From a bacterium (GTDB lineage Bacteria > Hinthialibacterota > Hinthialibacteria > Hinthialibacterales > Hinthialibacteraceae), in the NCBI GenBank assembly GCA_963663405.2, contig CAXXSM010000022.1:64001-128000 (forward strand): a stretch of 64,000 nucleotides of DNA. Reading direction: 5' to 3'. The position numbers and the translations under genes are program-made. The notes beneath the pieces were generated by a model that was not told the DNA's origin, did no database searches, and was given only the letters and a program-made list of their open reading frames with translations. Each line of letters starts with the position of its first letter. Position 1 is the first letter of the stretch. Of this stretch, positions 32,878 through 51,647 are shown in pieces.

Positions 32878-32883
32878 ATTTTT

Positions 32884-35309: not shown

Positions 35310-36854
35310 ATGAATCGAATCCAACTATTCTTTCAATTTTTTGTTATAGCGCTAATCCTATGCAATCAATTATCAGCTTCCGTTACTGTGAATTTCAGTG
35401 AATATTGTCCTCTGCATGTTGGAGATCGATGGACATTGGAAGATGAATTCGGCCGTATCTACAATCATGAAGTGACGGGAACGGAAATAATAAATGGAGA
35501 ACTAACCTATACCTATACAAACTGGGAAGGAAATCCGGAATACGCCAATTTGGCCTATGATTCTTCATCCTTGACGATTGTGGGCCTGAATGGGATTGTT
35601 CTGGACCCTCCAAGAGTGTATAACGGTCAAGATATAGAAAATTCAAGTGTTCATATTATCTATGAGATGGAACGAACGGTCACAACACAGGCAGGGGTTT
35701 TTCAGAATGTAGTCAAGGAAACGTTTTATGCCCTTAATGATGGAGTGGAATCGCTGACACGAGTCCAATACTTTGCGAAAGATGTAGGGCTTATTAAGGA
35801 TGAGGAATGGTCTGAAGGACAAGGCGCTCTTGAATATACCGCGGAGTTAGTGTCGTACCAAATTGGGGAGGTCCGGGACTGGTTATTCATGTGGGGTATT
35901 AACTGGGATCTTGCATGCCAAGATACTGTTATTGCGCTCTATTTATATGATATGAATTCAGGAGAGTTCAGAATTATTAAAAATGACTGTAACGACCTGG
36001 ATTCGTTTGGTGGTTTGAACCTGGACGGCAGCAAAGCCGTGTTCGCCGAGACGATGGAAGGCACAGATCAAGGTTCGATTAAGGTTTATGACATTGCCTC
36101 AGATCGTATTATTACTGTTAGTACTTTCGAGAGTGTGGATGGAGATTTCGCCGCCTATTATGATACTAACGACAAAATCCTATTTCTCGGCGGTGATGGT
36201 GAAATAAAACGGATGGATGGAGATGGTCAAAACGTCATCACCTTACTAAAACCTGAAATTCCATTCCGGTTTCAAGTGTTTTGGCTGTCGCCGGATCGTA
36301 AGACCATAGCCGCTGTAGAAAGTTATGAAGGTAGTGGGGATTATGAAACAAACCATTATGAAAGATTGATCGTAATCAATCTGGATAACACTAACCGCCA
36401 AGTTCTTATGGAAAGTTTTTTGGGGGAATGGAACTTTCTGACATGGAAATCTGATTCAAGTGGATTCTTCTACTATTACCATACCTTCAATGGGGAACCG
36501 GAACCAAATCATGCCGCCTATCCACAATATTCACTAGTTGATCTTTCGAAGGATCCGATTGTTCAAAATGATCTATCCAACTCTGATCTCGGAAGCAAAG
36601 AAGAGAATCTATGTTTTTATACACCATCCGGCTATTTACTTGGAGTAGTAACAGAAGAGTTGTATGATCCTCAAAGCGGCGCATTGATTCGTACCTGTCC
36701 GGATGGCGTTACATCGGTTTATTCGGGTATCATGGGAATCGATTCTTCTGGAGAGATTTATTTTGCCGATTTCAATGGCGGACATTTTTATCAGTTTGAT
36801 GATATGGATTGCTCTGGGATCATCAATTGGGAATTGTTGTATTCATTTGATTGA
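35310..36854 (+). CDS. Secreted acidic protein, beta-propeller-like C-half, C-terminal I-x-N-W-x-L motif
   Basis: Sec signal peptide; TolB-like repeats (LSPDRKTIA, TWKSDSSG); ends SGIINWELLYSFD. Confidence 0.7.
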   Translation: MNRIQLFFQFFVIALILCNQLSASVTVNFSEYCPLHVGDRWTLEDEFGRIYNHEVTGTEIINGELTYTYTNWEGNPEYANLAYDSSSLTIVGLNGIVLDPPRVYNGQDIENSSVHIIYEMERTVTTQAGVFQNVVKETFYALNDGVESLTRVQYFAKDVGLIKDEEWSEGQGALEYTAELVSYQIGEVRDWLFMWGINWDLACQDTVIALYLYDMNSGEFRIIKNDCNDLDSFGGLNLDGSKAVFAETMEGTDQGSIKVYDIASDRIITVSTFESVDGDFAAYYDTNDKILFLGGDGEIKRMDGDGQNVITLLKPEIPFRFQVFWLSPDRKTIAAVESYEGSGDYETNHYERLIVINLDNTNRQVLMESFLGEWNFLTWKSDSSGFFYYYHTFNGEPEPNHAAYPQYSLVDLSKDPIVQNDLSNSDLGSKEENLCFYTPSGYLLGVVTEELYDPQSGALIRTCPDGVTSVYSGIMGIDSSGEIYFADFNGGHFYQFDDMDCSGIINWELLYSFD

Positions 36855-36906
36855 AACACGCTTGTAAACCAGACGATTCAGGAATCATCGGGAGAGTTTT
36901 CATTTC

Positions 36907-38004
36907 ATGAAGATTACCAGAGTAGAAACCTATTTACTCGATATCCCGTTGAAACAACGGGCGATCACGGATTCTCAAAGTTATGTGGATTCAGTGGAAT
37001 TCGTGCAAGTCCGGATCGAAACCGATGAGGGGATCACCGGGTGGGGATTTAATTGGAATTACACCAAAGGCACGCGGGCGGTCAAAATAATAATTGATGA
37101 CACATACGCCCCGTTTCTTCCAGGGAAAGATCCCCTGCGGCGGAAGGAGATCATCCAGGAGTTGTATTACAATAATCACTTCATTGGACGGGTGGGGATC
37201 GCGCGTGTGGGATTATGCGCGGTGGAGATGGCGCTGTGGGATATTCAACTCAAGCAGGCCGGTCTTCCATTATGGAAATATCTGGGGCCATGCAAGGAGC
37301 GGGTGAAAGCCTATAACACGGATGGCGGTTGGCTGACGTGGACGGTGGATGAATTGATCGCTGATATGACGCTGCTGGTAGAGCGTGGATTCGACGCGGT
37401 GAAAATGAAGATCGGGCGTTCCGATCCGCGGGAGGATTACGAGCGCGTGAAAGCGGTACGCAAGGCGCTGGGGGATGGGATTCAGCTGATGGTCGACGCC
37501 AATACGGTCTGGGATTTGAAAACGGCGAAGGTCTGGGGGCGGCGGTTGGAAGAATTCAATATCGCTTGGCTGGAAGAGCCCCTTCATCCATTCGATAAGC
37601 GAGGACACGCAGCGTTGGCGAAAGCGTTGAATGTTCCCATCGCGGTGGGTGAGACGATCTATACCAAATACGATTTTCTGGATTATATCGAACTGGGGGC
37701 CGTCGATATCGTACAAGCTGATATGACGAAATTGCTGGGGATCGAGGAATGGCTCGAAGTGGCGGCGCTGGCGCGTGCGTACAACCTGGAAGTAATTCCT
37801 CATACGAACGTGCAGCAAAAGATACATGTCCAACTCGCAGCCGTGTCATCCAACGTTCCAATGGTGGAATATTGCTATGAATCCCTGGCCGATATTTGGG
37901 AAGAGCCGCTTCAAGTGATCGATGGGTATTATACGCTTCCAGAGGCGCCTGGGCTTGGATGTAAATTAACGGATAGGATTTTGGATGAATGCCGGGTGGA
38001 ATAA
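36907..38004 (+). CDS. Mandelate racemase/muconate lactonizing enzyme family (enolase superfamily)
   Basis: AVEMALWD, KMKIG, MVDAN, WLEEP, AVGE. Confidence 0.93.
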   Translation: MKITRVETYLLDIPLKQRAITDSQSYVDSVEFVQVRIETDEGITGWGFNWNYTKGTRAVKIIIDDTYAPFLPGKDPLRRKEIIQELYYNNHFIGRVGIARVGLCAVEMALWDIQLKQAGLPLWKYLGPCKERVKAYNTDGGWLTWTVDELIADMTLLVERGFDAVKMKIGRSDPREDYERVKAVRKALGDGIQLMVDANTVWDLKTAKVWGRRLEEFNIAWLEEPLHPFDKRGHAALAKALNVPIAVGETIYTKYDFLDYIELGAVDIVQADMTKLLGIEEWLEVAALARAYNLEVIPHTNVQQKIHVQLAAVSSNVPMVEYCYESLADIWEEPLQVIDGYYTLPEAPGLGCKLTDRILDECRVE

Positions 38005-38137
38005 GCGTTTTCTTTCCAGTCTAGTATTAATCCCATCATTTTTTTCCATCCATTGAAAGATTTTTCCCGCATTCTCGTATTGATTGAGTATGGCCTTCTA
38101 TCAATCACAATCATTTCAACGATAGGGAGAATATGAA

Positions 38138-39025
38138 ATGAAAACATCCTACATACAAACGGCGATTACCCTTGTTCTCATTTTGTTATGTATTTGGAAT
38201 ACCGGGTGTGGTATCCCATCTGAGAAATTTTCGGAAACGAAGGAATTTACACAAGATGGAAACGGGATTGAAACGATCGACGCGAAGACGACAAACGGTC
38301 ACATCTCTTTAATCGCCTGCGCGACGGATCAGATTTACGTTCACGCCAGGAAAGATGTCTACGCTTTCACAATGGAGGAAGCGGAGGCGTTCGCGGAGAA
38401 GGTTGAAATCTTAGTCAAGAAAGACGGGGATACTCTCCGGATTTACAAGGAACAACCGAAAAACACGATCGGGATCAATGTGAACGTGCACTTTGATATA
38501 ACCTGCCCCCAAAACGTTCAGGTCAATCTCGGTTCGACCAACGGAAAAGTTGAATCGAAAGGTGTGGAAGGAGCCGTCACCGCGTCTTCTACAAATGGCG
38601 CGGTTGAGGTGGATGGAGGATCGAAACAGATCTCTCTAAAAACGACAAACGGCTCCGTGAATTTTAAAAACATCACCGGCGCGATAAAAGCCAGTTCGAC
38701 CAACGGCGCTGTGAAAGGAACAATCGAAACATTAACAGACACAGCCCAGCTTTCCACGACGAATGGATCGATCGATGTATCAGTGGAGGAAGGCGTCGCG
38801 CCGATCAAAGCGGGCACGACGAATGGCTCCCTCTCCATCACGCTGCCGGAAGATTATTCAGGCCATCTGGACGCGAAAACATCGAATGGAAGAATCCATT
38901 CTGATTTCGACGTTCAATTTGAGGGAAAAAAGAAGAATCGCGTGGATGGCCCGATCGGTGCAGGAGGAGAAACAGAATTAAGCCTTCATACGACAAATGG
39001 GAATATTAATATTAAGAAACAGTAA
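38138..39025 (+). CDS. DUF4097 beta-strand-repeat lipoprotein
   Basis: NTGC lipobox; many (T/S)TNG repeats. Confidence 0.88.
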   Translation: MKTSYIQTAITLVLILLCIWNTGCGIPSEKFSETKEFTQDGNGIETIDAKTTNGHISLIACATDQIYVHARKDVYAFTMEEAEAFAEKVEILVKKDGDTLRIYKEQPKNTIGINVNVHFDITCPQNVQVNLGSTNGKVESKGVEGAVTASSTNGAVEVDGGSKQISLKTTNGSVNFKNITGAIKASSTNGAVKGTIETLTDTAQLSTTNGSIDVSVEEGVAPIKAGTTNGSLSITLPEDYSGHLDAKTSNGRIHSDFDVQFEGKKKNRVDGPIGAGGETELSLHTTNGNINIKKQ

Positions 39026-39155
39026 TTCTCTCGTGGTTTGAAAAACATATAGGGTGGATCGCACTTTATCGACCCACCATTTATAATTAATTGATTCGGC
39101 GCCTCATAAAGACGCGACCCACCCCACGGGGAATCAGTTTTCGTTCCAATGATTG

Positions 39156-40328
39156 TCACACTCCCGATTGCATCTTTTCCATGAACTTTGACATTGAGAT
39201 TACCGTTACATCATCCTTGACCGGAAATTCATCATCACCACCATATACGATGAATTTTTTGGTTGCGCCTATATCCTCGCATGTCTGGCTGTAATGTTTG
39301 TCTAACTTGGGGGCTGACCCATATTTAATTTCCACGGCCCAGACTTCCGATGATGGCATTTTGATCGCGAGATCAATCTCTGCGCCTGCCGCCGTGCGGT
39401 AAAAATAAGTCTCCGCCCGGCGCGGCAGGATAGAGTGGATGTTCTCAACCACAAAACCTTCCCAGCTTTTCCCCAGGATAGGATTTGACAGTAGCGCGTC
39501 GTAGGTATTTATCCCCAATAACCGGTGCTGGATACCGCTGTCACGGATATAATAACGGGGGGATTTTATCAAGCGTTTCTTGACATTGGCATACCACGGC
39601 TCTAACCGTCTGACCAATAGCAAATCCACCAATATATCCATGTAATGATTGATCGCTTTGCGCTGTACTTCCAAATTACTTGCCAGTTTGCTGACATTTA
39701 CGGTTTCACCTTGCAAGTGCGCGAGCATCGTCCATAAACGGCGCAGTCTGTTTGCAGGCACACGAAAGCCCATCTGTGGAACATCCCGCTCAAGATAAGT
39801 ACGGATCAGATCTTCAAGCCAATCCATGGCCATATCATCGTCTGCGGCCAAAAAACCGTCTGGAAAACCGCCCCTCAACCAAAGATTTTGGAGATCATCT
39901 TTATTTTCTCCAATTTCCAACACATTCAAACCACTCAATTCGATGTAGCGGATACGGCCTGCCAAACTCTCTGAAGACTGGCGCATCAAATCCATGGACG
40001 CAGAGCCTAAAAGCAGGAATTGACCTGATTTTTTGCCTTGCCGCCTATTCTTGTCGATCAGCCCACGCAGGACCTTAAACAAGTCAGGAGCGCGATGAAT
40101 TTCATCTAGGATTACCAGTTTATCGTTGTGAGCGCTTAAAAAACTGGTTGGATCGCTGAGTTTCAGCAAATCTTCCGGGGATTCCAGATCGAGATAGATT
40201 GAGTTTTGCTCTTTTGCGATCGTTTTGGCAAGCGTGGTTTTTCCCACCTGACGCGCGCCAAGAAGCGCTACAGCGGGAACCTGTGTAATGCTCTTTTGGA
40301 GTTTATCTATAATCCGTCGCTTTAACAT
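39156..40328 (-). CDS. AAA_14 / DUF4143 ATPase
   Basis: GARQVGKTT, ILDEIH, LLGSAS, RGGFP, YFYRT..GAEIDL, AVEIK. Confidence 0.92.
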   Translation of the reverse strand: MLKRRIIDKLQKSITQVPAVALLGARQVGKTTLAKTIAKEQNSIYLDLESPEDLLKLSDPTSFLSAHNDKLVILDEIHRAPDLFKVLRGLIDKNRRQGKKSGQFLLLGSASMDLMRQSSESLAGRIRYIELSGLNVLEIGENKDDLQNLWLRGGFPDGFLAADDDMAMDWLEDLIRTYLERDVPQMGFRVPANRLRRLWTMLAHLQGETVNVSKLASNLEVQRKAINHYMDILVDLLLVRRLEPWYANVKKRLIKSPRYYIRDSGIQHRLLGINTYDALLSNPILGKSWEGFVVENIHSILPRRAETYFYRTAAGAEIDLAIKMPSSEVWAVEIKYGSAPKLDKHYSQTCEDIGATKKFIVYGGDDEFPVKDDVTVISMSKFMEKMQSGV

Positions 40329-40481
40329 ACCTTGTATTTTGTGCCTAAAAAGCGCAAAATGCAAGGTATAAATTATATTGTAATTGATCGGTCATCTGAA
40401 GTGATAGATTCCTCCCCAAGAAACGGTGTTTGTACCGGATCAGTAAGGGAGAGATTAAGGGGGTTGTCCCATCTATTCGCC

Positions 40482-40570
40482 GGGTGGCCAGGACAAGGTT
40501 TTTTTTCTGCCCTGGTATAATTTCCAGAACGTAGTCAGGGTATAAAAAAACCTTCAGCCTTCAGTCTAAG
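40482..40570. repeat. Second copy of the CCAGGGCA..TGCCCTGG hairpin element plus an inverted heptameric run
   Basis: 40482-40526 resembles 25334-25376; CCTTCAGCCTTCAGTCTAAG at 40551-40570. Confidence 0.65.
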
Positions 40571-40581
40571 CTACCTTCTAC

Positions 40582-41661: not shown

Positions 41662-41898
41662 TTTCTTTCTCCTTCTTTTACTCATACATTCATTCGAACC
41701 GTTTCCTTCTGTCGACGGTAGATAATCGATCATATCAGGTTTATGGATTTCGTCTACTATCGGAAAGGAATCTCTATTTTATTAAAAGATAGCTCTTTCG
41801 ATACTTTGATATTGATTTCTCACATTAAATATGTTAAAAATAGATCGATTCAGCGCATTTCTGCGTTAGAAAATTCATTGTGCTCCTGGAGGCTTTCG

Positions 41899-43431
41899 AT
41901 GAACGGTCTTCGATTCAAGACTTTCGCGTGGTTTGCTTTTTTGGGATTCATCGTCTTTGGATTGTCAACACCGGCTTTCTCGGCGGTAAAACCCTGGGCT
42001 TCAACGGCTCATGTGGATTTCTTCGTGGAAGATGGCGGTTTTACTCCGCTGGTGGATGGTTTTATCGATGCGGAGGAATGGCGGTTTTCCCCGCAGAGTT
42101 CCGGCGCTTCCGGTTCGTTCTGGTATGTCCGGTGGAATGCGGCGCAGGATGATGAAGGCGTCGTTCAGACCGGTCTTTTCAGTTCCGATTCGGGGGATGA
42201 ACCGTACGATACGAGTGATTGTTCGTTCTATGTCTATACTCTGTATGATGATGAATATTTATACATCGCCGTTTCCGTGACGGATGATATCACTTCATTC
42301 AACGATACGGGGGAAGGAACCGAAGACGGCTCGACGTGGAACGATGATTCTGTGGAGATCTTCATCGACGGTGATTACAGCCAATTCGAGACCAGTCTCA
42401 CCGCCGCTTCCGCTGACGATCAAGCGAGAGAATTCGCCACGGGCGGACAGTTTGTTCTGACGAATAACAATTCGTGGAGAGACAACGAAGCGGGGAATCC
42501 TACATTTGGAGAAGATGGGGATTGGTATGCGCGCGCCGAATGGACCGATGTGGGCTATGATGTTGAATTCAAGATCAAACTCTCCAAGATCGGGAATCCC
42601 ACCAAGGGATCAACCATTGGATTTAACATCGCTGTGAACGACGACGATGATGACGGCGCCACAACCTCACCAGCCCGGTATCAGCTGCGGTGGGCGGGAG
42701 AAGCGCATGTAGAATCAACATATGGAGCCCTCTATTTCGGCCCGCGTGAAGTGACAGCGCCGTTGGTGGATGGGCCGGTCACGATCGATGGTGTGATGGA
42801 TGAAGCGGATTGGGCGAAAGCGGCTGTGGAGCCTGTGACTCCTTATAGTGGAGTGATTATCAACGATCAATTGCCCGTCTCATCGGAAGATCTCTCCTAT
42901 ACCTCATATATTATGCACGACGACACATGGCTTTACGTCGGTTTTATCGTGATGGATGAGGATGTCATCACCGACACGGAACCGGAAGGATCGCATAACG
43001 CCAACACATGGCATGATGATTCAATGGAAGTGTTCATCGATCAGGATCTCGATCATGGGGCCGATACGAGCAACAATCGCTATGGAAGCGCCGATTTGAT
43101 CGAAGGACAGTTTGTTCTCACCGCCGGAAACGCGACTCGTGACGCCAACACAACCAATGTGCCATTGATCGGAGAGACAGATGATGACGATTGGTGGTGC
43201 TGGGCGACTCTGACTGAAAGAGGATGGCAGGGAGAAATGCGTTTTAAGAAGGAAATGATTGTAGGATTTGACCAAATTGGATTTACCATGGCCGTTAATG
43301 ATGACGATCCATCGGATGTGGAGACCGACCATCAACTCCGATGGCAAGGCGCCCCACACGTGGAATCAAGCTATGGTGTGTTGATTCTTGGGGAAGCCCC
43401 CGTCCCTGTATCGGATTGGATGATACATTAA
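41899..43431 (+). CDS. Secreted tandem CBM9/DOMON-like sugar-binding protein with C-terminal V-x-D-W motif
   Basis: Two repeats (YD..YLY.A..V.DD, W.DDS.E.FID, IGF..AVNDDD, QLRW.G..HVES.YG); signal peptide; ends PVPVSDWMIH. Confidence 0.8.
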   Translation: MNGLRFKTFAWFAFLGFIVFGLSTPAFSAVKPWASTAHVDFFVEDGGFTPLVDGFIDAEEWRFSPQSSGASGSFWYVRWNAAQDDEGVVQTGLFSSDSGDEPYDTSDCSFYVYTLYDDEYLYIAVSVTDDITSFNDTGEGTEDGSTWNDDSVEIFIDGDYSQFETSLTAASADDQAREFATGGQFVLTNNNSWRDNEAGNPTFGEDGDWYARAEWTDVGYDVEFKIKLSKIGNPTKGSTIGFNIAVNDDDDDGATTSPARYQLRWAGEAHVESTYGALYFGPREVTAPLVDGPVTIDGVMDEADWAKAAVEPVTPYSGVIINDQLPVSSEDLSYTSYIMHDDTWLYVGFIVMDEDVITDTEPEGSHNANTWHDDSMEVFIDQDLDHGADTSNNRYGSADLIEGQFVLTAGNATRDANTTNVPLIGETDDDDWWCWATLTERGWQGEMRFKKEMIVGFDQIGFTMAVNDDDPSDVETDHQLRWQGAPHVESSYGVLILGEAPVPVSDWMIH

Positions 43432-43565: not shown

Positions 43566-43844
43566 TCAAGACGAATTCATCGAGTTTCTATATTCCTCTA
43601 TTAATTCATTGGGAATCCCTTTCAATGCGATCATGATGAGCAACGGGACGATAATTAAATCGTCAATGTGTCCAATGATTGGAATCCAATCGGGAATAAG
43701 ATCGATCGGGGAGAGGAGATATCCAACGGCGGCGGCGAGCAGCCATTTCGTCCATACGGGAGTCCGATTGTCTTTAAGGAGGGATTGGTAGAGTTTGATT
43801 TCCTGTTTGATTTGATGGGCTATTAATCGGAGTTTATTGAACAC
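43566..43844 (-). CDS. DUF1232 (YkvA) family protein
   Basis: YLLSPIDLIPDWIPIIGHIDDL. Confidence 0.9.
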   Translation of the reverse strand: MFNKLRLIAHQIKQEIKLYQSLLKDNRTPVWTKWLLAAAVGYLLSPIDLIPDWIPIIGHIDDLIIVPLLIMIALKGIPNELIEEYRNSMNSS

Positions 43845-43888
43845 GGTAATTTCTTTGAACCGGAAAATTTAGTTTTGTATGTTCTCGA

Positions 43889-44503
43889 TTAGAAATTCGG
43901 TGGGAAATTGCCGTTGTACATGATGCCGTCAACTTTGAGGTTTCTTACCACGGATGAATCGCCTCCGTACCAGAAGATATCCCCATTGCTGACTAAGCCG
44001 TTGCTGGTTCTGTAAGTGTTTCCATATCCATTGTTCCGTTGGATGCCGAAAAAGGGCTGGGCGGAATAAAGGCCGTTTTCCGCCAAATCGGGTCCACGAG
44101 AGAATATATTGTAAGCGACGTTTTTCTTGCCCCGGCTGGCGACGCCGGTTTCGTACGACGCTTCCTGCCCTTCCGCTCGTAAGATCACGGAATCTTGGAA
44201 CGGATCGTGTGGAAGAGATGACATATAGGCCACAGGCGCTGTCAGGAAAAAGAGTCCCGCTTCGGATTTCGCGCGGCGGCCTGTAAAAATATCATCCTCG
44301 GATTCGGGGGGATAGCCATTGTTATCCAAATTATACATTTCATGGGCTTGAGCCAACGCTCTGATATCCGATTGAACGCGGGCGATTTTCGCCCGAATCT
44401 GGGCGTTGAGAAAATTCGGCACGGCGATCGCGGCCAGAATGCCAATGATGGCGACGACGATTAATAACTCGATTAGAGTAAATCCATATTGCGAGTGTTT
44501 CAT
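43889..44503 (-). CDS. Type IV pilin / T2SS pseudopilin-like protein
   Basis: G|FTLIELLIVVAIIGILAAIAVPN class III signal; DPF, SRGPD, SNGLVSNGDI. Confidence 0.9.
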   Translation of the reverse strand: MKHSQYGFTLIELLIVVAIIGILAAIAVPNFLNAQIRAKIARVQSDIRALAQAHEMYNLDNNGYPPESEDDIFTGRRAKSEAGLFFLTAPVAYMSSLPHDPFQDSVILRAEGQEASYETGVASRGKKNVAYNIFSRGPDLAENGLYSAQPFFGIQRNNGYGNTYRTSNGLVSNGDIFWYGGDSSVVRNLKVDGIMYNGNFPPNF

Positions 44504-44648
44504 CTTTCAAAATCTCCAGGCGATTGTTTTTTACGGCGTTCCCAAAATTTAATAAGCCGTAGAATATAAATGAAGACGGGGAAGCGCAAAGAATACGATA
44601 CTCTATGGCGCTTCCCCTCGTATATTAAAAAAATTACGTCACATTTAT

Positions 44649-46184
44649 TTATTCAAATATAGACCAATCGCAGACAGCCGTATCAGTTCCTTCCGCTGGA
44701 TTGACGAACGACATAACGACAATATCTCTCGTTCCCAATCCTTTACCAGGAACCGCCCGTGATCCCCAGGTAATGGAAACTCGGTCGTTAGTGATCGCCG
44801 GAATCGCTTCACCGGGATCGCCTGCGGTCGCCTCGCCGGTTGTGGGATCGGTGAATTCGGGCAGCGGGTGAACGACAAAGGCGTCGGTGGCGGGTGTGCC
44901 GTCCGCGTTGAAGATCCGGGCGACGACGCTTTCTGTTCCACTGTCGAGATCCGCGGCTCCATCATGCCATGAAATCACAAACGTGCCATTGGGCGCCATA
45001 GCGCATCGTTCCCGTCCTAAACTTCGGAAATCGGCGTGTTGTGTAACGGCGATGAAGGGAGTGATCGGTTCGCCTTGATCATCCCAGACACGAGCCATAA
45101 TCTGGGTCATATCCGCCATATCCGCAGGATATCCCAAATCGACAGTGGCGTTCACGGTATGGACCGTGACGAACCGGTCTTCTCCACTCGCGTCGAACCA
45201 AGAGGGACGGATTCCAGTGGCTTCATCCGTCGCTGAGAATTCCTTGACGAGATTGCCGTCGTTATCATAAATAACGCCTTTGCTACTACTCGTTCCACTA
45301 ATGGCGCTTTTATCATCATAAAATATACAGACAAAACCGTTGGCTAAACCGCCTAAACGTAGATCTTGCTGTTGACCGGTTAAATCGTCTGTCGCAAAGA
45401 ATTCATCTTTAAATCGTGTTCCATCTCCGTTGAAGATATTAAGTAAGGGAACTCGTGATCCTCCATCTGGATAATCCGGATCGTCTACGTAGCGGTGATC
45501 CCGCGCTACGGTTCCAATGACGAATTTACCATCGCTAAGCCAGCAACAATCCCATTCACGATGGCCCGCGCTGAACTGAGAGATAGAGATTGGTTCGGGG
45601 GTGGTTGGTTCCAACTGATCGTTGAACAGTTTGAAGAATCCGTGTCCCTGCCCATCGTCCTCGTGAATTCCATCCTCGTCAATGACAGTATCAGGGATCA
45701 CGGCGTCCGTCCCAAATAATTGTCCATATTGCCATGTGGCGGCGCCAAGGAATCCACCACCGACGCGATCGGCTTTATTCAGGGTCCAGTTCGTGTTTCC
45801 GCCGGTGTTGGCGCCGACAATAATATCGTCAGCGTTGTCTTCCGTGATCGTTGGGAAGACCAACGCGCCGGACGCGTCGATACCATTCACATGATGGCTT
45901 CCCAGGCGATTGACCCAAAAGACCGTTGTTGATCCATTGTTGAGAATGGAAATTTTTGGTTCGCGATCATCCCCTGTGGTTTGCCCTAGAATCACAGGAC
46001 CTTCCGTTGTTATGGCTTCCAGACCAGCGACATCGAATGTGGGTGTTTCGTCGATAATCGTGATCTCTTCCCCAAGTGGTTGAGCCACACAGGGATGATA
46101 AACCAATAAAGAAAACGCCGACACACACACGAAAAACAATGCAAATCGTAAGACTCTCATCATGCTGCCCCTTTCTTGTTTCAT
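44649..46184 (-). CDS. Secreted acidic protein of unknown function with C-terminal V-x-D-W motif
   Basis: Signal peptide; repeats such as ARIFNADG.P, MAPNGTFVISW; ends TDTAVCDWSIFE. Confidence 0.7.
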   Translation of the reverse strand: MKQERGSMMRVLRFALFFVCVSAFSLLVYHPCVAQPLGEEITIIDETPTFDVAGLEAITTEGPVILGQTTGDDREPKISILNNGSTTVFWVNRLGSHHVNGIDASGALVFPTITEDNADDIIVGANTGGNTNWTLNKADRVGGGFLGAATWQYGQLFGTDAVIPDTVIDEDGIHEDDGQGHGFFKLFNDQLEPTTPEPISISQFSAGHREWDCCWLSDGKFVIGTVARDHRYVDDPDYPDGGSRVPLLNIFNGDGTRFKDEFFATDDLTGQQQDLRLGGLANGFVCIFYDDKSAISGTSSSKGVIYDNDGNLVKEFSATDEATGIRPSWFDASGEDRFVTVHTVNATVDLGYPADMADMTQIMARVWDDQGEPITPFIAVTQHADFRSLGRERCAMAPNGTFVISWHDGAADLDSGTESVVARIFNADGTPATDAFVVHPLPEFTDPTTGEATAGDPGEAIPAITNDRVSITWGSRAVPGKGLGTRDIVVMSFVNPAEGTDTAVCDWSIFE

Positions 46185-46523
46185 ATTCTGTTTTACTAAA
46201 AAGATTCAATAGATTTACAATTTTATATTATGCTATAAAACCGATAGAAGTCAACAAGACTCCATCGAGAATGGACAATCGATCATCAAATTTTTTACTA
46301 AAAGAAAAGCATATATTTATTCAGCGTATATTAATTTTAAATTAATGATGATTAATTTTAGGAATACAGGGCTGGAAGATTCTAACAAACCGATGGTTTT
46401 GAATGCGTTCATTAGCCGAATGATTCTTGTTTTTTGATAGATCGTTCCATTATCTATCTTATTTCCCTTTCATTTCAACTAAAATAAAGTGAATGATATC
46501 TGATTGAAATAAGGGAAAGATGG

Positions 46524-47150
46524 ATGGTCAATCCAAAATGGAAGATCGTCACTCTTGGTTATCGTAATGAAAACGTGGATGGGGAGGAGGGAACTCATCC
46601 GCCGATCCAGGGGTGCACGTCTACGTTGATTGAAGTGGAAAATCGGCGGATTGTTGTGGATCCGGGATTGGATTCTATTCAAGATTACGCAACGACACTC
46701 TTCCACCAAACCGGATATAATCCGGATGAGATCGATACGGTTTTTTTGACACATTTTCATGCGAATCACCGGCGCAGCCTCCATCTCTTCCGAAAATCGG
46801 TCTGGTTGATGTCCCGTTCAGAAATCCGCTGGCGCCAGAAACACGATGAGACAAATGAAGAAGAGCGGGATGTTCTCGCCCGGATCGTTCCGGCTGAGGA
46901 GCACGCGCTGCCCGGCGTGGAACTCGTTCCCACTCCCGGCCATACGCATGGCTCCACCTCGTTGTTGTTTGAAACGCGGGAAGGAATGATCGTCGCCGCA
47001 GGGGACGCGGCGTTGACGTTCGAGCATTTTGAGGATCGCCACGTATCTGAACATGCGGAAGACATTAAAGAGGCGAAACGTTCGATCGACCGGATCGCGA
47101 AGATGGCCGATCTCGTGATTCCCGGCCATGAGAATTATTTTGTCGTTTGA
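46524..47150 (+). CDS. Metallo-beta-lactamase-fold hydrolase
   Basis: VVDPG, THFHANH, TPGHT.GS, AAGDA, IPGHE. Confidence 0.85.
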   Translation: MVNPKWKIVTLGYRNENVDGEEGTHPPIQGCTSTLIEVENRRIVVDPGLDSIQDYATTLFHQTGYNPDEIDTVFLTHFHANHRRSLHLFRKSVWLMSRSEIRWRQKHDETNEEERDVLARIVPAEEHALPGVELVPTPGHTHGSTSLLFETREGMIVAAGDAALTFEHFEDRHVSEHAEDIKEAKRSIDRIAKMADLVIPGHENYFVV

Positions 47151-49588
47151 GAGAGAGCCGCACCAGCGGGTTGAAATCGCGCGACCGTCACACCGGAACC
47201 GCCTTCGTACTCAGAACCGTTTTCATACGATGTCACGACGGGATTATCCTTTAAGAATTGGCGGACGGCGCGCCGCAGTGTTCCCGTGCCGTGTCCATGT
47301 ACGATTATGACGTAGGGGATATTCGAGAGAAACGCGTGATCGATGAATTTCTGCAACAGAGGAGTCATTTCATCCACGGTCATCCCATGAATGTCGAGTT
47401 GATATTCAATACTTTGGGGACGATCGACGTTGATCCCTCCGGTTTTGACTTTGGTATTCTTCTTTTTGGGGGCGAGAACGGCCAGGACGCGTTCGCTTTT
47501 GATCCGCAAATTCATAGAACTGACGCTGACCTCCAATTCGCCTTTGTCAGGCCAGAGTTTCGTGACGGTTCCTGGTTCGGTGAGACCACCGATGCGGACG
47601 CGGACGTTAGGTTTGAGTTGATCCCAGGACCAATCTTCCCGTTCGAAGGTTTCCACGACCGGCTCGTGTTTTCCCTGGGCAAAAACGGTTTTCGCTTGCT
47701 CTAATTCACCCCGCAGACTAGTAAGGACGGTTTCCGCTGGGGCGGATTCGCTGGACCGCTCGACGAGTCGCTCCAGTTTTTCCTTCCATTGTTTTTGGTA
47801 ACCACGTTCTTGTTTATCGAGTTGTTCGAGCCGCCGTTCCAGTTCCCGGATCACGCCCTGGGCTTTTCGTTCGGCCCGTTGGATGACGTCGTTCGCTTCG
47901 TTCCTCGCTTTGCGCATTCGGTTTTCACGTTCGATGCGGAGATTTTTTGCTTTTTCAAATTCCCTTTCGGCTTCTTGGCGCTGGGCGTTGGAGGCGCGCA
48001 ATTCTTCTCCTAGCTGGGTTAAGAGATCTTCAGGGGCGGCGCCACGGTGTTGGAGGTTTTTCTTCGCATCTTGGATAATCGAATCCGGTAATCCCAACCG
48101 GCCGGCGATCTGGATGGCGTTGCTCTGTCCGGGAAGCCCCATTGTGAACGCGAATGTGGGTTGAAGCGATTGTAGATCGAATTCCATCGATCCATTCTCA
48201 ACGCCTTCTGTTTGATGCGCGAAGACTTTCAAATCCTGCAGATGCGTCGTAACAAAGTACATGGCGCCTTTCTCGTGCAGTTGTTTCAAGATCGCGCCGG
48301 CCAGAGCGCCGCCTTCGGCCGGATCGGTGCCCGAGCCCAATTCATCCAGTAAGACAAGACTGCCGGAGCCGGTTTTTTCGATGATGGAACGGATATTGGT
48401 GATGTGGGAAGAGAAAGTGGAAAGACTTTGTTCAAGGCTTTGTTCGTCTCCGATGTCAGCGCCGATCGATCGAAAGACGGGCAATTCGGTCGAATCATCC
48501 GCTGGGATGTGCATTCCACATTGCGCCATCAGCGCTAAAAGCCCAATCGTTTTTAAAACGACTGTTTTTCCACCTGTGTTCGGACCGGTGATGACCAATC
48601 CACGCGTTTCGGGTTCGAATCGAAGGTTTAAGGGGACCACCCGGACCTTACCATGTTGGACCAGCAACAGGGGATGGCGTCCATTGACGATGGAGATTGT
48701 ATTCTCCACCATGACCGGCGCGTTCATCTGGTGTTTGAAACTGAATCGCGCTTTGGCTGCAATCAAATCCAATTGGCGGAAGATTTCCAGATTGTAGAGC
48801 AGTTCATCGTAATATTGACCAATCAGCGCGGTCAATGCGCAGAGGATTTTCCGGATTTCGATTTCCTCTTCGCGATGAAGACTTTTAAGCCGGTTGCCGT
48901 CTTCGACCAATTCGAGGGGTTCGATGAAGACGGTGGTTCCGGTTGTGGAGCGGTCGTGGATGATGCCGCGCAACTTATTTTGATAGCGCGCGTCGATGGG
49001 GAGGACATACCGGCCTTCACGCTGGGTGTAATACGATTCCTGCATATAATCTTTGAGCCTTCCACGCATGAGCCGTTCAAGGCGCCGGACGAGGGCGCCG
49101 CGTTGTAGATGGATCGATTTTCGAACGCGGGATAATTCGTGGGAGGCGCTATCGCGAATCTGTTTCTTTTCGTCAAAGACTTTGTTGATGGCTTTCTCAA
49201 TTTCGGGATGGGGAATCAGGCGGCGTCCATAGATCTGAATGTGGGGCGCGTCATTCTGGATTCCTTCCACCGCTTTGCGGATTCGGACCGTGGCGGCGCA
49301 GGTTTCACCGATGATTAGAATTTCGGAAGGATCAAGCATCGCGCCGGAGAGGAGGCTGCGTCCAAGAGATTCACGGATATCATAGAATCCTTCGAGAGGA
49401 AGAGGGCGGTTTGTTTCCCACAACCGGACCATTTCGGTCACTTCGCGAAGCGCGAAGCGGATCTCTTCCAACGAGAGGGACGGCGCCAGCGATTGGATGG
49501 CCTCCCGGCCCAGCGGGGAAACCGCGAACTGACTCAGAATGTCTTTGAGTTTATGAAATTCCAGTACCCGGAGAGCGTGTTCATCCAT
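47135..49588 (-). CDS. mutS2: Endonuclease MutS2
   Basis: LEF.KL, ITGPNTGGKT, DIGDEQS, LDELGSGTDP, TTH, Smr LDIHG...HGHGTG.LR. Confidence 0.95.
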   Translation of the reverse strand: MDEHALRVLEFHKLKDILSQFAVSPLGREAIQSLAPSLSLEEIRFALREVTEMVRLWETNRPLPLEGFYDIRESLGRSLLSGAMLDPSEILIIGETCAATVRIRKAVEGIQNDAPHIQIYGRRLIPHPEIEKAINKVFDEKKQIRDSASHELSRVRKSIHLQRGALVRRLERLMRGRLKDYMQESYYTQREGRYVLPIDARYQNKLRGIIHDRSTTGTTVFIEPLELVEDGNRLKSLHREEEIEIRKILCALTALIGQYYDELLYNLEIFRQLDLIAAKARFSFKHQMNAPVMVENTISIVNGRHPLLLVQHGKVRVVPLNLRFEPETRGLVITGPNTGGKTVVLKTIGLLALMAQCGMHIPADDSTELPVFRSIGADIGDEQSLEQSLSTFSSHITNIRSIIEKTGSGSLVLLDELGSGTDPAEGGALAGAILKQLHEKGAMYFVTTHLQDLKVFAHQTEGVENGSMEFDLQSLQPTFAFTMGLPGQSNAIQIAGRLGLPDSIIQDAKKNLQHRGAAPEDLLTQLGEELRASNAQRQEAEREFEKAKNLRIERENRMRKARNEANDVIQRAERKAQGVIRELERRLEQLDKQERGYQKQWKEKLERLVERSSESAPAETVLTSLRGELEQAKTVFAQGKHEPVVETFEREDWSWDQLKPNVRVRIGGLTEPGTVTKLWPDKGELEVSVSSMNLRIKSERVLAVLAPKKKNTKVKTGGINVDRPQSIEYQLDIHGMTVDEMTPLLQKFIDHAFLSNIPYVIIVHGHGTGTLRRAVRQFLKDNPVVTSYENGSEYEGGSGVTVARFQPAGAALSQTTK

Positions 49589-49725
49589 TCCGTATAGCTC
49601 GTTATGTAATACGGCGCCGAGAAGGATTTCGTAAGGAGAAATTCAGGCGAGTGATGTCAACAAAATAGAATCAACGCCTAATATTTTAGGCGTTTTATTC
49701 CACTTTCGGCCTTTCTAGGTTCTTC

Positions 49726-50016
49726 TTACATTGTTTCCTGAGGACGCGGTTCACGTATTTCTTTGTTCGTTACCCATTTGATAAAATATCGAATATGGCC
49801 GATCAATCCCACGTGTTTTTTCCAATTTTCGATAAAGATGTCACAGCGTGGACAACCGTTTTTGGTCGGTTTTTCGGCGCGGTTCATCAAGACAAAAAGT
49901 TTTCGTTCACGATGACTGGGCCGTGGCCGCATGGGTGTCATTATTTCTGGACAATGAAAGTCCCCATCTTTGAAGGGGCATATAAAATCAATCTGCCGTA
50001 TTGGTTTATCGCTCAC
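49726..50016 (-). CDS. Small basic Cys-containing hypothetical protein
   Basis: GTG start after AGGGGAG RBS; CPF..FHCP and CPRC. Confidence 0.5.
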   Translation of the reverse strand: MSDKPIRQIDFICPFKDGDFHCPEIMTPMRPRPSHRERKLFVLMNRAEKPTKNGCPRCDIFIENWKKHVGLIGHIRYFIKWVTNKEIREPRPQETM

Positions 50017-50201
50017 AATCAGAACTCCCCTTTTTGGTCTATAATCGACTGGATAGTATAGCATCACGGCCGCATTGGAGTAATGTCCCGCTGTCGAAAT
50101 TATTGAACTCCCATTGACAGACGAATGGTTTCGGAAACAATCATACAAAGTACGAACAAATGGCGTAGCAGCGCCCTATTTTTTCATTAAAAGGAGACAA
50201 A

Positions 50202-51647
50202 TTGATGACTGGGAGTAAGACAATCGAGATTTCTTCGTTGGTTCTTTCCCTATTCATGATGTGTTTCATCACGGGAGTCTGTGTAGGGGCGGACTTGACT
50301 GTAAAGCAGGACGGCTCTGGGGACTACCAAACCGTCCAAGAAGCGCTGGACGCGGCGTCGGAAGGAGACACCGTGATCGTCTCAGCGGGTGTGTATGAGG
50401 AGGATATTAATATTGGACATTTCAACGTGCCGTCCGAAAAGAAAGATGGGATCACCCTTGTTGCGGCGGATGGAGAAGATGTTGAAATTAGAGCGAGTAA
50501 TACAGAACTTCGCTTCGCCGTTCTAGCGGCGGCCGGAAACGATCCAGGCCCCATGGACCGGATGGGTTTTATCATTCACGGTAATAATATCACGGTAGAA
50601 GGAATTCGTTTTGTTCAACCGTCAGACGAAATTAACAACTTGGAGGTCAATACCGCAATCGCAGTAGGCGGCGCGGATGTAACATTCCGCAACTGCGAGA
50701 TTGTTGGCCCTGGACTGGAAGTAGACGAAGATATCGTGGGATTGGCGATCGCTATTTTTGATGTCCAAGGGATTATGGAAGGGAATCCTACAATCGCGAC
50801 GAATCTACTTTTAGAAGATTGCACGTTTACGAATGTTCCCTACGGCTTCGCCAACACGGATTTCCTTAGCACAGGGCTGCCGCCGGAAGTGACTCTCAAT
50901 AACTGCGAGTTTTTCGGAACTGGAAACGCGATAGAAATCGACGCGGGCACCACTCATCTGATCGATTGTTACATGCATGATAACGCGCAGGGTTTTCATA
51001 TTTCCGATGATACCACCACCATTACGAACTGTATCATTGAAAACAACACAGTACATGGTATAGAGATTGACGATCAGGCGATCGAAGATGATGAACCGCC
51101 GGAGAATCCAGTCGTAACGATTGATGGCTGTACAATCTCAAATAATGGAACCGAGACGAACCATTATGGGCTGCTGATGGATATCGGAACATTGACAATG
51201 ACCAATACGATTATCCAAGGCAGTTCCGGCCCCAATGTGTTTTTTGGAACGGAATCGGGGCGGGAGAATATAGCCACGCTCGATCACTGCGATCTCTATC
51301 AATCGAAAAGCGGTGTCGCGGTAAACACCGTCGCCGAATCGCAGGACATCATCACTTTCACGATGACCAATTCCATTGTTGTGGATACAAAAGGCATTAT
51401 CAACAGCGCGGATATTCTTGGCGATTTCACGGTGAATTACTGTGATGTCTATACGACTGACGCGCAGTTCGAAGGGCCGTTTCTCAGCACGGAGAATAAT
51501 CTTAACGTCGATCCGGGCTATGTTGACGCGGCGAACGGGAATTTCTTCCTGCTGCCGGATTCTCAAGTCGCTACCGCCGGGGGAAATGGAACCTATATGG
51601 GTTCAAAAGGCGTTACGACTCCCGTCGGAGATTGGATGCTGCGGTAA
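50202..51647 (+). CDS. Secreted right-handed beta-helix (pectin-lyase-fold) protein with C-terminal V-x-D-W motif
   Basis: V.QDGSGDYQTVQEAL..A..GD.V.V.AG.Y.E; PbH1-like repeats; DP.YVDAANGNF.L...S; ends TTPVGDWMLR. Confidence 0.85.
   Translation: MMTGSKTIEISSLVLSLFMMCFITGVCVGADLTVKQDGSGDYQTVQEALDAASEGDTVIVSAGVYEEDINIGHFNVPSEKKDGITLVAADGEDVEIRASNTELRFAVLAAAGNDPGPMDRMGFIIHGNNITVEGIRFVQPSDEINNLEVNTAIAVGGADVTFRNCEIVGPGLEVDEDIVGLAIAIFDVQGIMEGNPTIATNLLLEDCTFTNVPYGFANTDFLSTGLPPEVTLNNCEFFGTGNAIEIDAGTTHLIDCYMHDNAQGFHISDDTTTITNCIIENNTVHGIEIDDQAIEDDEPPENPVVTIDGCTISNNGTETNHYGLLMDIGTLTMTNTIIQGSSGPNVFFGTESGRENIATLDHCDLYQSKSGVAVNTVAESQDIITFTMTNSIVVDTKGIINSADILGDFTVNYCDVYTTDAQFEGPFLSTENNLNVDPGYVDAANGNFFLLPDSQVATAGGNGTYMGSKGVTTPVGDWMLR

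Follow-up and report, generated by a model that had tools for sequence, protein, structure and literature searches.

A short tryptophan-containing C-terminal tail on unrelated exported proteins of Hinthialibacterota: a probable protein-sorting tag

Introduction

Short, lineage-confined C-terminal signals that occur on many paralogous and unrelated exported proteins are known from several systems, such as PEP-CTERM/exosortase, LPXTG, GlyGly-CTERM and MYXO-CTERM. In signals of the PEP-CTERM type, a motif is followed by a transmembrane helix and a basic cluster, and the reader is an integral-membrane transpeptidase or protease. For example, the C-terminal GlyGly-CTERM tag of the Vibrio type II secretion (T2SS) cargo VesB, which is tripartite, contains a membrane helix and is cleaved by rhombosortase, is reported to decide surface retention (PMC12889589).

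In Bacteroidota, a few percent of the proteome ends in the type A CTD of the T9SS (TIGR04183/PF18962), which follows the last functional domain. This C-terminal signal is carried by unrelated proteins that are exported through Sec and often handle carbohydrates. It folds into a beta-sandwich some 70-100 residues long, which is read by PorV/PorU/SprA and cleaved. The beta-signal of outer-membrane proteins (BAM) forms the final strand of a membrane barrel and has its hydrophobic residues at -1, -3, -5 and -7; it is read in the periplasm, where its YxF-COOH terminus is sensed by the PDZ domain of DegS. In addition, very short putative C-terminal motifs of 10-11 positions have been modelled as NF053834 ('ultrashort_CTERM') and NF050076 ('sort_motif_YLP').

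Sorting for type II secretion can also involve dedicated helpers. In Acinetobacter, membrane-anchored and substrate-specific T2SS chaperones, LipB for LipA and CpaB for CpaA, are encoded beside their secreted proteins and are reported as likely to bind them for type II secretion (PMC4713064). Here, we describe a nine-residue tail on exported proteins of an uncultured bacterium, which resembles the above signals in position and distribution and differs from all of them in form.

Materials and Methods

The genome is a MAG of 8.4 Mb, 82% complete, from the Hinthialibacterota/OLB16 lineage, and the window is the whole 64-kb stretch of its DNA that was analysed. Genes and signal peptides were called by crude in-house methods. 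C-termini were scored with a position matrix built on 65 core tails, with a call threshold of 8, and internal control windows were cut 30-32 residues upstream of the C-termini. The null for adjacency to pilin genes was obtained from 1,000 draws of signal-peptide genes.

Results

The tail in the window and in the genome

The first-pass annotation had described one motif on four secreted proteins of the window. When re-read in the sequence, the four open reading frames, their C-terminal sequences, the quoted codons and the signal-peptide-like N-termini were all as claimed, and the bodies are indeed acidic, with a net acidic excess of 0.10-0.15 per residue. By the matrix, the motif stands for 41899..43431, 44649..46184 and 50202..51647, and falls for 35310..36854 (Table 1). 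In the latter, NW is placed nine residues before the C-terminus, and this register shows hardly any enrichment (20 observed vs. about 11 expected). This protein has a single weak, sub-threshold Pfam match. The 34 other genomes in the phylum gave no orthologue at E<=1e-10, and consequently a decayed tag cannot be shown for it.

Table 1. Tagged proteins, their tags and other features of the window
Feature	Coordinates	Strand	Description	Tag score
Secreted acidic protein	35310..36854	+	Ends ..IINWELLYSFD; not a canonical tag bearer	-23
Tagged cargo 1	41899..43431	+	510 aa, two CBM9-like domains, signal peptide, acidic; ends ..GEAPVPVSDWMIH	29.6 (..PVPVSDWMIH)
Tag of cargo 1	43402..43428	+	V-P-V-S-D-W-M-I-H, abuts stop codon; fits genome-wide logo	
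GspG-like pseudopilin	43889..44503	-	204 aa, same strand as cargo 2 and 146 bp downstream of it; predicted binding partner of the cargo body	
Tagged cargo 2	44649..46184	-	511 aa, secreted beta-propeller (modelled), signal-peptide-like N-terminus; ends ..TDTAVCDWSIFE	25.4 (..TAVCDWSIFE)
Tag of cargo 2	44652..44681	-	T-A-V-C-D-W-S-I-F plus one extra residue (E), then stop; register +1	
Tagged cargo 3	50202..51647	+	481 aa, secreted right-handed beta-helix, Pfam Beta_helix + DUF5123; ends ..GVTTPVGDWMLR	17.8 (..TPVGDWMLR)
Tag of cargo 3	51618..51644	+	T-P-V-G-D-W-M-L-R, abuts stop codon	

The consensus of the tag is [TVS]-[SAP]-V-x-[DNE]-W-x-[LIV]-[YHF]-COOH, with hydrophobic positions at -1, -2, -4 and -7. 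Among the predicted proteins of this genome, 169 C-termini score at least 8, compared with one control window. Tryptophan occupies position -4 in 264 of the 5,944 predicted proteins of at least 100 aa (97.7 expected), and [DN]W is found exactly five residues from the end in 93 of them (11.2 expected per register). At the DNA level, the degenerate pattern V-x-[DN]-W-x-hydrophobic-[YHFL]-stop matches the genome 62 times, and the reversed pattern twice. The distance to the carboxylate is nearly fixed, 141 of the 169 tagged proteins being in register 0 and 25 in register +1. The codons differ between copies, so the conservation is at the protein level, as had been proposed. With three tagged proteins among about 58 genes, the window is near the genome rate of 2.6%, and its tag frequency is nothing special.

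Proteins that carry the tag

The carriers are not homologous to each other, in agreement with the earlier claim: BLAST clustering splits the 169 tagged proteins into 72 groups, of which 50 have a single member. Since their last 100 residues, taken without the tail, split into 100 clusters, no common domain bears the tail. CBM9 proteins make up the largest cluster (44), followed by LRR (20) and LamG (6), so that the cargo consists mainly of binding modules rather than enzymes; in the sulfatase family of this genome, one member is tagged and the other 37 of the 38 are not. The proposed proteome-wide scan showed the tag to be enriched among proteins with a crude signal peptide (77/106 strict tag matches vs. 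2,071/6,514 other proteins, odds ratio 5.7). Tagged proteins are also more acidic than other exported proteins (net acidic excess 0.095 vs. 0.016), and just one of the 169 has a lipobox. The motif had been reported as absent from Tat proteins in the window; one tagged protein elsewhere in the genome does bear a Tat signal. It should be noted that many tagged proteins scored as signal-peptide misses do have signal peptides on inspection.

A free tail in a sorting-signal position

In the window, the tails of the tagged proteins terminate 3-5 residues past the tryptophan, without a hydrophobic stretch. According to the AlphaFold2 models, the tag is a disordered free tail. The model of 50202..51647 (pLDDT 88.1, pTM 0.85) has no secondary structure at residues 475-480, where pLDDT is below 50. 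That of 44649..46184, for which the Pfam search gave no family, is all-beta and also confident (pLDDT 85.7, pTM 0.85), with pLDDT below 50 at residues 494-504; Foldseek returned generic beta-propellers only (TM about 0.5). The suggestion that the motif could be the structural last strand of each fold is thus not borne out by the two models. The tryptophan is kept in orthologues down to 37-40% identity: W477 of 50202..51647 is invariant in 21/21 homologues, and W is present in 22 of 24 close homologues of 44649..46184, the remaining two being truncated. Distant homologues of this propeller have RTX repeats, and are untagged and without signal peptide.

For 41899..43431 (Pfam CBM9_1, E 3.6e-26, two stretches), the C-terminal slot is exchanged among relatives. 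Among the 120 homologues listed, 61 end in the W-tag, 51 in an 'FYRV' module of about 50 aa and 7 in other sequences, and one carries PEP-CTERM (TIGR02595, 17.6 bits vs. a cut-off of 16) exactly in the slot of the W-tag. The tag thus occupies a position where a sorting signal is found in a homologue.

Comparison with described signals

The tag fits no described signal, as the first-pass annotation had stated: it lacks the transmembrane helix with basic tail of the PEP-CTERM-type signals, GlyGly-CTERM of VesB included, and has no folded CTD. The last 30 residues gave no NCBIfam match at E<=10, and by regular expression none of the 6,620 genes has a PEP-CTERM-like or LPXTG-like terminus. Membership in PEP-CTERM, LPXTG or GlyGly-CTERM was rejected on the absence of a helix, of a hydrophobic stretch after W and of a model match. 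The T9SS CTD, with which the tag shares its share of the proteome and its place after the last functional domain, was rejected because no CTD model matched the four whole proteins (Pfam E<=0.01, NCBIfam E<=1) and because the tagged proteins do not share the region before the tail; it also differs from the nine disordered residues seen here in being a folded domain. The SprA model TIGR04189 is silent in this genome (82% complete), and is silent also in all 14 control genomes.

The beta-signal and the tag are alike in the aromatic residue at the very C-terminus and the hydrophobic pattern near the end. However, the tag is disordered in the models and its carriers are soluble folds (beta-helix, propeller, CBM9), and the beta-signal was rejected on the modelled beta-helix and beta-propeller with unstructured tails. 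NF053834 and NF050076 match at three places in the genome with tag scores of -25 to -29, none being a tagged C-terminus, so identity with them was rejected; they also match in 10-11 of the 14 control genomes. A type I secretion signal was rejected as well, because the N-terminus of each of the three tagged proteins in the window looks like a signal peptide and RTX occurs only in the distant untagged homologues.

Distribution across lineages

The restriction to a lineage that had been suggested is confirmed. Of the 34 other Hinthialibacterota genomes, 32 show enrichment of the tag, which is at background level in families f4 and f5. Enrichment is also seen in roughly half of the 75 Sumerlaeota genomes, 35 having at least five pattern matches and 33 no more than two. 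In this second candidate phylum, the logo is the same although GC content and codon usage differ. Among 185,579 species scanned, 71 loci were obtained, comprising 23 labelled Omnitrophota (NCBI name), Hinthialibacteria or Sumerlaeota, 33 in unnamed MAGs and 15 scattered singles in other taxa.

Excess of pseudopilin genes beside tagged genes

Next to tagged cargo 2 lies a gene for a GspG-like pseudopilin, one of about 160 in this genome, with a prepilin N-terminal cleavage/methylation motif (N_methyl PF07963, E 9.6e-10) and a T2SSG fold (PF08334, E 2e-8). It matches GspG TIGR01710 at E 1e-20, under the 88.85-bit cut-off of that model, and is therefore a paralogue rather than the GspG of the operon. 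The order of the pair is conserved in 10 of 15 readable orthologous loci from two families.

Tagged genes adjoin pseudopilin genes above chance, which is new here. A pilin-family gene adjoins 27 of the 169 tagged genes, whereas random draws of signal-peptide genes gave 7.9 +/- 2.7 (at most 20), and 19 of these 27 are on the same strand and within 300 bp. Pilins are the most enriched neighbour family of tagged genes (39/153 members, p 7e-10). In one Sumerlaeota genome, a pilin gene is directly upstream of 2 of 13 tagged genes. An adjacent pilin is absent from most tagged genes, only 16% having one.

A model of the complex of 44649..46184 with 43889..44503 gave ipSAE values of 0.64/0.64/0.50, whereas the best of three controls gave 0.00; the runs share at least 91% of contacts, with partner pLDDT of at least 82. 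The mark of 0.64 is reached by 116/157 solved complexes and 2/215 mismatched pairs, counts that are only a rough guide here, since our own alignments were used. The modelled interface is on the propeller body, and tag residues 496-504 are outside the confident contacts; the first 29 pilin residues had been removed, so contacts there could not appear. The model supports, and does not show, binding via the cargo body and not the tag. The closest analogue of this pair is LipB/CpaB with their substrates, with the difference that the helper here is a GspG-like pseudopilin with binding that is predicted only.

Search for a reader

A search for machinery co-occurring with the tag had been proposed. 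No reader was found, and every candidate tested turned out to be present in tag-free relatives too, whose genomes also encode T2SS components, pilins, secretins and PDZ proteins. This genome has at least three T2SS-like operons, none of which contains a PDZ-type GspC by Pfam. The GspK of the T2SS type on contig C29 has clear orthologues (E 1e-56) in the two tag-free genomes of its own phylum. Of the few secretin matches in the tag-rich Sumerlaeota genomes checked, one lies within a single T2SS operon, which is collinear with the C29 operon. TPR-secretin is found in 75/75 Sumerlaeota genomes, and pilin N-terminal motifs number 25-97 per genome in all 75, tag-free ones included. Among the genomes checked, secretin matches even number 11-12 in tag-free Sumerlaeota vs. 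2-4 in tag-rich ones. The PDZ-domain proteases of this genome are four HtrA-like and two S41 proteins, and no extra PDZ protein class was seen in tag-rich genomes.

Discussion

The tail is probably an address label. Our preferred explanation is a genuine tag for protein sorting, new in type, limited to certain lineages and likely linked to a T2SS/pseudopilin-dependent surface step; taken as a whole, we put this at slightly under an even chance. That the tag exists, how it is distributed, that it is a free tail and that it takes a slot used by sorting signals are shown by the above data, and the further steps are inferred. A short unstructured peptide would be read from its free C-terminus, and would mark a subset of proteins that are Sec-exported, folded, acidic, non-lipoprotein and mostly carbohydrate- or ligand-binding modules. 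It would act in a step after inner-membrane crossing, most likely one in which the type II secretion/pseudopilin apparatus carries the cargo to the cell surface or displays it there. Part of the cargo may have its own neighbouring GspG-like pseudopilin, an adaptor that would grip the cargo body, and the tag may be a generic handle for a putative common component. Signal peptides and T2SS-like operons are present, and the pilin adjacency and the modelled complex support such a link of the tagged cargo with type II secretion.

Could the tag act only after export? Export would then be independent of the tail, and the free aromatic C-terminus would plug non-covalently into an abundant surface component, such as an outer-membrane protein, LPS, an S-layer or a pilus filament, which would hold the lectin-like modules on the cell. 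Such docking would suit a cargo of CBM9, LRR and LamG modules, useful only when cell-held, as well as a slot that in a homologue holds PEP-CTERM, an anchoring-type signal. The fixed distance from W to the carboxylate would suit a pocket gripping the chain end, and no covariation is seen between the tag and the export machinery. However, no receptor candidate was found, and nine residues make a small interface. We consider docking a doubtful explanation; the present data separate it from export in neither direction, both being compatible, and the T9SS CTD does both. PDZ domains, as in DegS with YxF and in Prc/Tsp, bind free hydrophobic or aromatic C-termini, and the tail might also be what a housekeeping protease or chaperone of the periplasm (S41 Ctp/Prc or HtrA/DegP type) recognises, as a handle for C-terminal maturation, quality control or timed turnover and not for sorting. 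The HtrA-like and S41 proteins of this genome are at hand for this role, and the lack of a tag-specific machine in the comparisons would follow, because PDZ readers are universal. But it is hard to justify why selection should keep a degradation or quality-control tag on about 3% of all proteins, and unchanged in orthologues down to 37-40% identity, the acidic, binding-type cargo with nearly all sulfatases excluded looks like a decision about location, and tag-rich genomes are without an extra PDZ class, which makes this handle quite improbable.

The remaining two alternatives deny the tail an address role. As a structural element, it would form the final strand or a cap in each fold, or complete a partner subunit as an added strand. 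The polar/apolar alternation of the tail does resemble a beta-strand, and in some pilus tip proteins a terminal segment provides the docking to minor pilins. On the other hand, the tail is unstructured in both models next to confident bodies and lies outside the predicted pilin interface, at least 72 unrelated folds carry it, and homologues of the same fold do without it or have other modules; a structural role is accordingly very improbable. A chance or compositional artefact, or the by-product of a conserved DNA element at gene ends, has nothing in its favour beyond the shortness of the motif, and is refuted, with hardly any residual probability, by the control windows, the reversed pattern, the differing codons and the logo of the second phylum.

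Returning to the sorting tag linked to type II secretion, its most specific form is that, in Hinthialibacterota and part of Sumerlaeota, a nine-residue linear C-terminal peptide picks folded proteins for type II secretion or pilus-borne display, with a large family of GspG-like pseudopilins as cargo-specific adaptors that hold the cargo by its body. In this full form, the proposal is speculative and rather unlikely. To our knowledge, Acinetobacter substrates of the LipA/CpaA type have no common C-terminal tag. If the proposal is true, a T2SS-type machine would for the first time have a secretion signal that is simple and transplantable, and the more than 100 pilin-like genes in these bacteria would be accounted for.

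Extent and shape of the C-terminal tag

Then, how far does a tryptophan-containing tail noticed on a few proteins of one window extend? The first-pass annotation had grouped four ORFs under a common C-terminal motif, and all four are present with the tails, codons and signal-peptide-like N-termini described for them, their bodies being acidic as stated (net acidic excess of 0.10–0.15 per residue). The observation of a shared nine-residue tail (hereafter the tag) is correct for the CBM9-like, beta-propeller and beta-helix proteins, and its extent is far beyond the window; the ORF 35310-36854 is a non-member by score, and an orthologue search for it in the rest of the phylum found none. The coordinates of these and other features are listed in the table. 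The exported DUF4097 and acyltransferase-like proteins lack the tag, and therefore tagged and untagged exported proteins adjoin in the window.

Coordinates and annotation of the features discussed (window positions, or contigs C of the genome G000 and Sumerlaeota loci L; matrix score of at least 8, tagged)
Location	Coordinates	Annotation	Tag
Window	35310-36854	Sub-threshold Pfam match only	Non-member (score -23)
Window	38138-39025	Exported DUF4097 'toastrack' protein, lipoprotein-like N-terminus	Absent
Window	41899-43431	Two CBM9-like domains (Pfam)	Score 29.6
Window	43889-44503 (-)	GspG-like pseudopilin	
Window	44649-46184	Beta-propeller; no family in Pfam search	Score 25.4
Window	50202-51647	Beta_helix and DUF5123 (Pfam)	Score 17.8
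Window	51690-52976	Exported protein, acyl-CoA:6-APA acyltransferase-like domain	Absent
C22 (contig of the window, which spans 64001-128000)	1011-2429	Beta-helix-PDZ protein	
C53	75756-77210	Sulfatase, twin-arginine signal (..NRRTFIK..)	..NVSSWPIHK
C169	5739-8465	WD40 beta-propeller, 908 aa	..TPIQDWQFH
C118 (L095)	113062-115926	GspD, seemingly split (359 + 82 + 442 aa)	
C133 (L101)	24900-27700	GspD, seemingly split (476 + 172 + 114 aa)	
C18 (L097)	25079-35128	550-aa secretin among family-less exported proteins (546, 254, 336, 139, 117 aa)	
L177	8434-11154	Sumerlaeota GspD	
L178	8467-11136	Sumerlaeota GspD	
L179	9344-11851	Sumerlaeota GspD	

The genome, denoted G000, is a MAG of 8.44 Mb in 170 contigs, 82% complete, for which 6,620 genes were called by a simple codon-bias ORF picker. 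Among its 5,944 proteins of at least 100 aa, [DN]W starting five residues before the C-terminus occurs in 93, compared with about 11.2 expected per register, and 3 to 32 proteins fall in each of the remaining registers between 2 and 30; W at position -4 was observed in 264 proteins versus 97.7 expected. The logo of the tag is [TVS]-[SAP]-[VI]-x-[DN, also E]-W-x-[LIV]-[YHF]-COOH. With a position matrix trained on 65 core tails, and with control windows taken 30–32 residues upstream, 169 C-termini score at least 8 against one control window (177 against two at a score of at least 6), so the proteome-wide scan that had been proposed places the motif far above control. No residue follows [YHF] in 141 of the 169 tagged proteins, while one does in 25 and two in 3. 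A degenerate DNA pattern, composed of the tail and the stop codon, gives 62 matches in G000 compared with 2 for the reversed pattern.

Proteins that carry the tag

The tagged proteins form 72 BLAST clusters, 50 of which are singletons, and the last 100 residues without the tail fall into 100 clusters; therefore, the tail is not brought by a common domain. Enrichment on exported proteins, as supposed at first, is borne out: 77 of 106 strict matches pass our own crude signal-peptide rule, versus 2,071 of 6,514 others (odds ratio 5.7), many of the apparent misses having plain signal peptides on inspection or being fragments. A lipobox is found in only one tagged protein, and the net acidic excess is 0.095 for tagged proteins versus 0.016 for other exported proteins.

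Pfam searches with 20 cluster representatives assign the largest cluster to CBM9 (44 members), followed by LRR (20) and LamG (6), with WD40, FG-GAP, NHL, esterase and FGE-sulfatase domains in smaller clusters; 10 of the 20 have no Pfam family. The tag is selective, since only 1 of 38 sulfatase-family proteins bears it. This sulfatase (C53) is also the sole strict Tat substrate among the 169, and therefore the tag is possible on a protein exported already folded. The tagged WD40 propeller on C169 has an uncommon fold for a bacterial protein that is exported.

Distribution across genomes

The proposal of a lineage-specific signal agrees with the distribution of the DNA pattern. Across the phylum's 34 other genomes, 5–55 matches occur in families f1, f2, f3 and f6 versus 0–4 for the controls, and families f4 and f5 are at background (1 and 3 matches, respectively). 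A stricter pattern, applied to 185,579 species with one genome each, retrieved 71 loci: 8 in Candidatus Omnitrophota (NCBI label), 1 in Hinthialibacteria OLB16, 14 in Sumerlaeota, 33 in MAGs without a taxon label, and 15 single matches in assorted taxa. Among 75 Sumerlaeota genomes, 35 are enriched with at least 5 matches (up to 39), 7 have 3–4 and 33 have at most 2, and the tag is present in what look like clade-like blocks; in one of these genomes, 13 of 14 matches are genuine ORF ends that show this logo.

Tag-free relatives were also searched for a variant of the tag. No common tail was seen in 400 kb of G108, where 64 proteins with crude signal peptides were inspected by eye, or in 400 kb of G001, where one of 278 ORFs scores at least 8 versus about 7 expected at the rate of G000.

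Structure, conservation and position of the tail

The first-pass annotation had allowed that the tail might simply be the last structural strand of each fold. AlphaFold2 models were built on 21-row alignments for the beta-helix protein (pLDDT 88.1, pTM 0.85) and for the beta-propeller protein (pLDDT 85.7, pTM 0.85), the Foldseek neighbours of the latter being generic beta-propellers. In both models the tail, 6 to 11 residues at the C-terminus, is without secondary structure and stays below a pLDDT of 50, and therefore a structural last strand is disfavoured. The tail is kept in 21 of 21 beta-helix homologues, with W477 invariant, and in 22 of 24 close propeller homologues, the other two being truncated records; a close propeller homologue is named Candidatus Hinthialibacter, and the phylum of G000 is very probably Hinthialibacterota. 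Five distant propeller homologues have no tag, and two of them contain RTX repeats and lack a signal peptide. The distant homologue P0049 ends in ..ADVDDFMLH, with F in place of W, and it should be noted that DNA patterns requiring TGG would overlook such tails.

Of the 120 homologues listed for the CBM9 protein, the tag forms the end of 61 (median 504 aa), 51 have about 50 extra residues with FYRV-like ends (median 559 aa; some are labelled Verrucomicrobiales), one has a PEP-CTERM end (TIGR02595, 17.6 bits, cut-off 16), and 7 have other ends. Therefore, the tag occupies the slot of recognised or probable sorting modules. The FYRV-like module of homologues P0226-P0321, which ends in ..[FY]YRV[RVK], has no name in the precomputed Pfam column or in NCBIfam for the 4 proteins scanned, and may be another uncatalogued sorting module.

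The tag itself fits no described sorting HMM, as had been claimed: NCBIfam gave no match to the last 30 residues at E ≤ 10, and its scan of the entire proteins turned up no sorting model. The ultrashort motifs NF053834 and NF050076 match 3 unrelated places in G000 and no tagged terminus, and match most control genomes too. Regular expressions found no PEP-CTERM-like or LPXTG-like termini in G000, and the SprA model is silent in G000 and in the control genomes as well. A literature search, with coverage outside subscription journals and supplements, found no description of the tag, and a term search of the Hinthialibacter paper (PMC9324843) gave 0 occurrences of 'c-terminal'.

Association with pilin genes

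About 160 pilin-family genes are present in G000, and 27 of the 169 tagged genes adjoin one, compared with 7.9 ± 2.7 for random signal-peptide genes (maximum 20 in 1,000 draws). In 19 of these pairs the two genes share a strand and are no more than 300 bp apart, with the pilin downstream of the tagged gene in 12 pairs and upstream of it in 7. No neighbour family is more enriched than the pilins, of which 39 of 153 members lie within two genes of tagged genes (p 7e-10); ECF sigma factors follow (8 of 28 members within the same distance). Small anti-sigma-like genes are also enriched within two genes of tagged genes and, together with the ECF sigma factors, hint that some tagged cargo is under dedicated envelope-signal control.

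In the window, the GspG-like pilin lies 146 bp after the tagged propeller gene. Of the phylum's 35 genomes, 15 have propeller orthologues, at 17 loci, 2 of them interrupted by contig ends; a pilin that shares the ..YNG.(F/A/C)PPNF.. end is directly downstream at 10 of the 15 readable loci, an order that spans families f1 and f2, down to 41% cargo identity. A complex was modelled from the mature propeller and a pilin lacking its first 29 residues, with our own alignments, so that benchmark counts are only rough: the score is 0.64 (best of 3 controls, 0.00), a mark that 116 of 157 solved complexes attain, as do 2 of 215 mismatched pairs. Contact agreement between runs is at least 91%, and partner pLDDT is at least 82. 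Confident contacts involve the propeller body (residues 63-65, 86-87, 119-122, 145-172, 221-236, 287 and 477-478) and the head and C-terminal extension of the pilin; the tag is absent from them, the pilin being modelled without its first 29 residues. Binding of the propeller to this pilin is supported, rather than shown, by the model. With contacts on the body and none on the tag, the adjacent pilin looks like a cargo-specific partner, and the role of the tag must be a more general one. A dedicated pseudopilin partner for part of the cargo appears to exist.

Search for a reader and alternative roles

How folded periplasmic proteins are chosen for export or surface display in Gram-negative bacteria is a long-standing question, and we know of no linear signal for type II secretion. 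The best reading of the tag is a new, very short sorting signal that is read from the free C-terminus, its carriers being exported, folded and acidic; its link to the type II secretion or pseudopilin apparatus has support but is unproven. In G000 there are 8 secretin genes, a Tad locus and no fewer than three T2SS-like operons, and Pfam finds no PDZ-type GspC in the 8 secretin neighbourhoods. The three tag-rich Sumerlaeota genomes examined have only 2–4 secretin matches: the PilQ of a PilMNOPQ operon, a very large TPR-secretin, and a single T2SS operon whose gene order matches that on C29 of G000. The C29-type T2SS is insufficient for the tag, as GspK orthologues occur in G001 and G027, both tag-free and of the same phylum as G000. 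The TPR-secretin (C23 in G000, 920 aa), considered as a receptor-channel, has homologues in all 75 Sumerlaeota and is not tag-specific; likewise, the TIGR02532 motif has 25–97 matches in every one of them, tagged or not, so that pilin expansion is no correlate of the tag.

Two other roles are live, namely a docking handle used after export and a recognition handle for PDZ proteases. A dedicated PDZ reader was rejected: the PDZ proteins of G000 are ordinary HtrA, S41 and RseP types, PDZ_6 matches number 5–7 in three tag-rich Sumerlaeota versus 9–12 in two tag-free genomes, with no extra size class, and strong orthologues of the unusual beta-helix-PDZ protein on C22 are confined to 8 of the phylum's 34 other genomes, a minority of the tagged ones. 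A weak match of a secretin-neighbour protein to the WxL-interacting-protein domain (20.1 bits, cut-off 27.3) was treated as noise. None of the candidate readers compared (TPR-secretin, pilins, C29-type GspK and PDZ proteins) tracks the tag, the presence of which follows clades, with what appear to be about 3–5 gains or losses.

Several features of the secretin genes were noted in passing. Secretin-domain matches number 11–12 in tag-free G108 and G045 versus 2–4 in tag-rich G099, G103 and G100, and envelope machinery differs strongly between clades of this one phylum, Sumerlaeota. The Sumerlaeota GspD genes L177 to L179, each the single T2SS secretin in a tag-rich genome, encode 836–907 aa, with about 185–213 residues past the Pfam secretin domain, far more than the usual S-domain and with no assigned family. 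Two GspD genes of G000 (L095 and L101) are seemingly split into separate ORFs, with N0/Secretin_N apart from the secretin domain; pseudogenes, frameshifts or errors in the assembly may lie behind this. The L097 cluster, which adjoins a 1,276-aa FG-GAP/VWA protein, may be an undescribed secretin-based system.

Implications

If the sorting role is true, no bacterial sorting signal of this kind would be shorter than the nine-residue tag at the free C-terminus, which about 3% of the proteome carries and which is conserved in two candidate phyla. Proteins of uncultured bacteria that degrade polysaccharides could then be better annotated and their localisation better predicted, and the tag system could account for the unexplained expansion of pilin-like genes here and in allied phyla.
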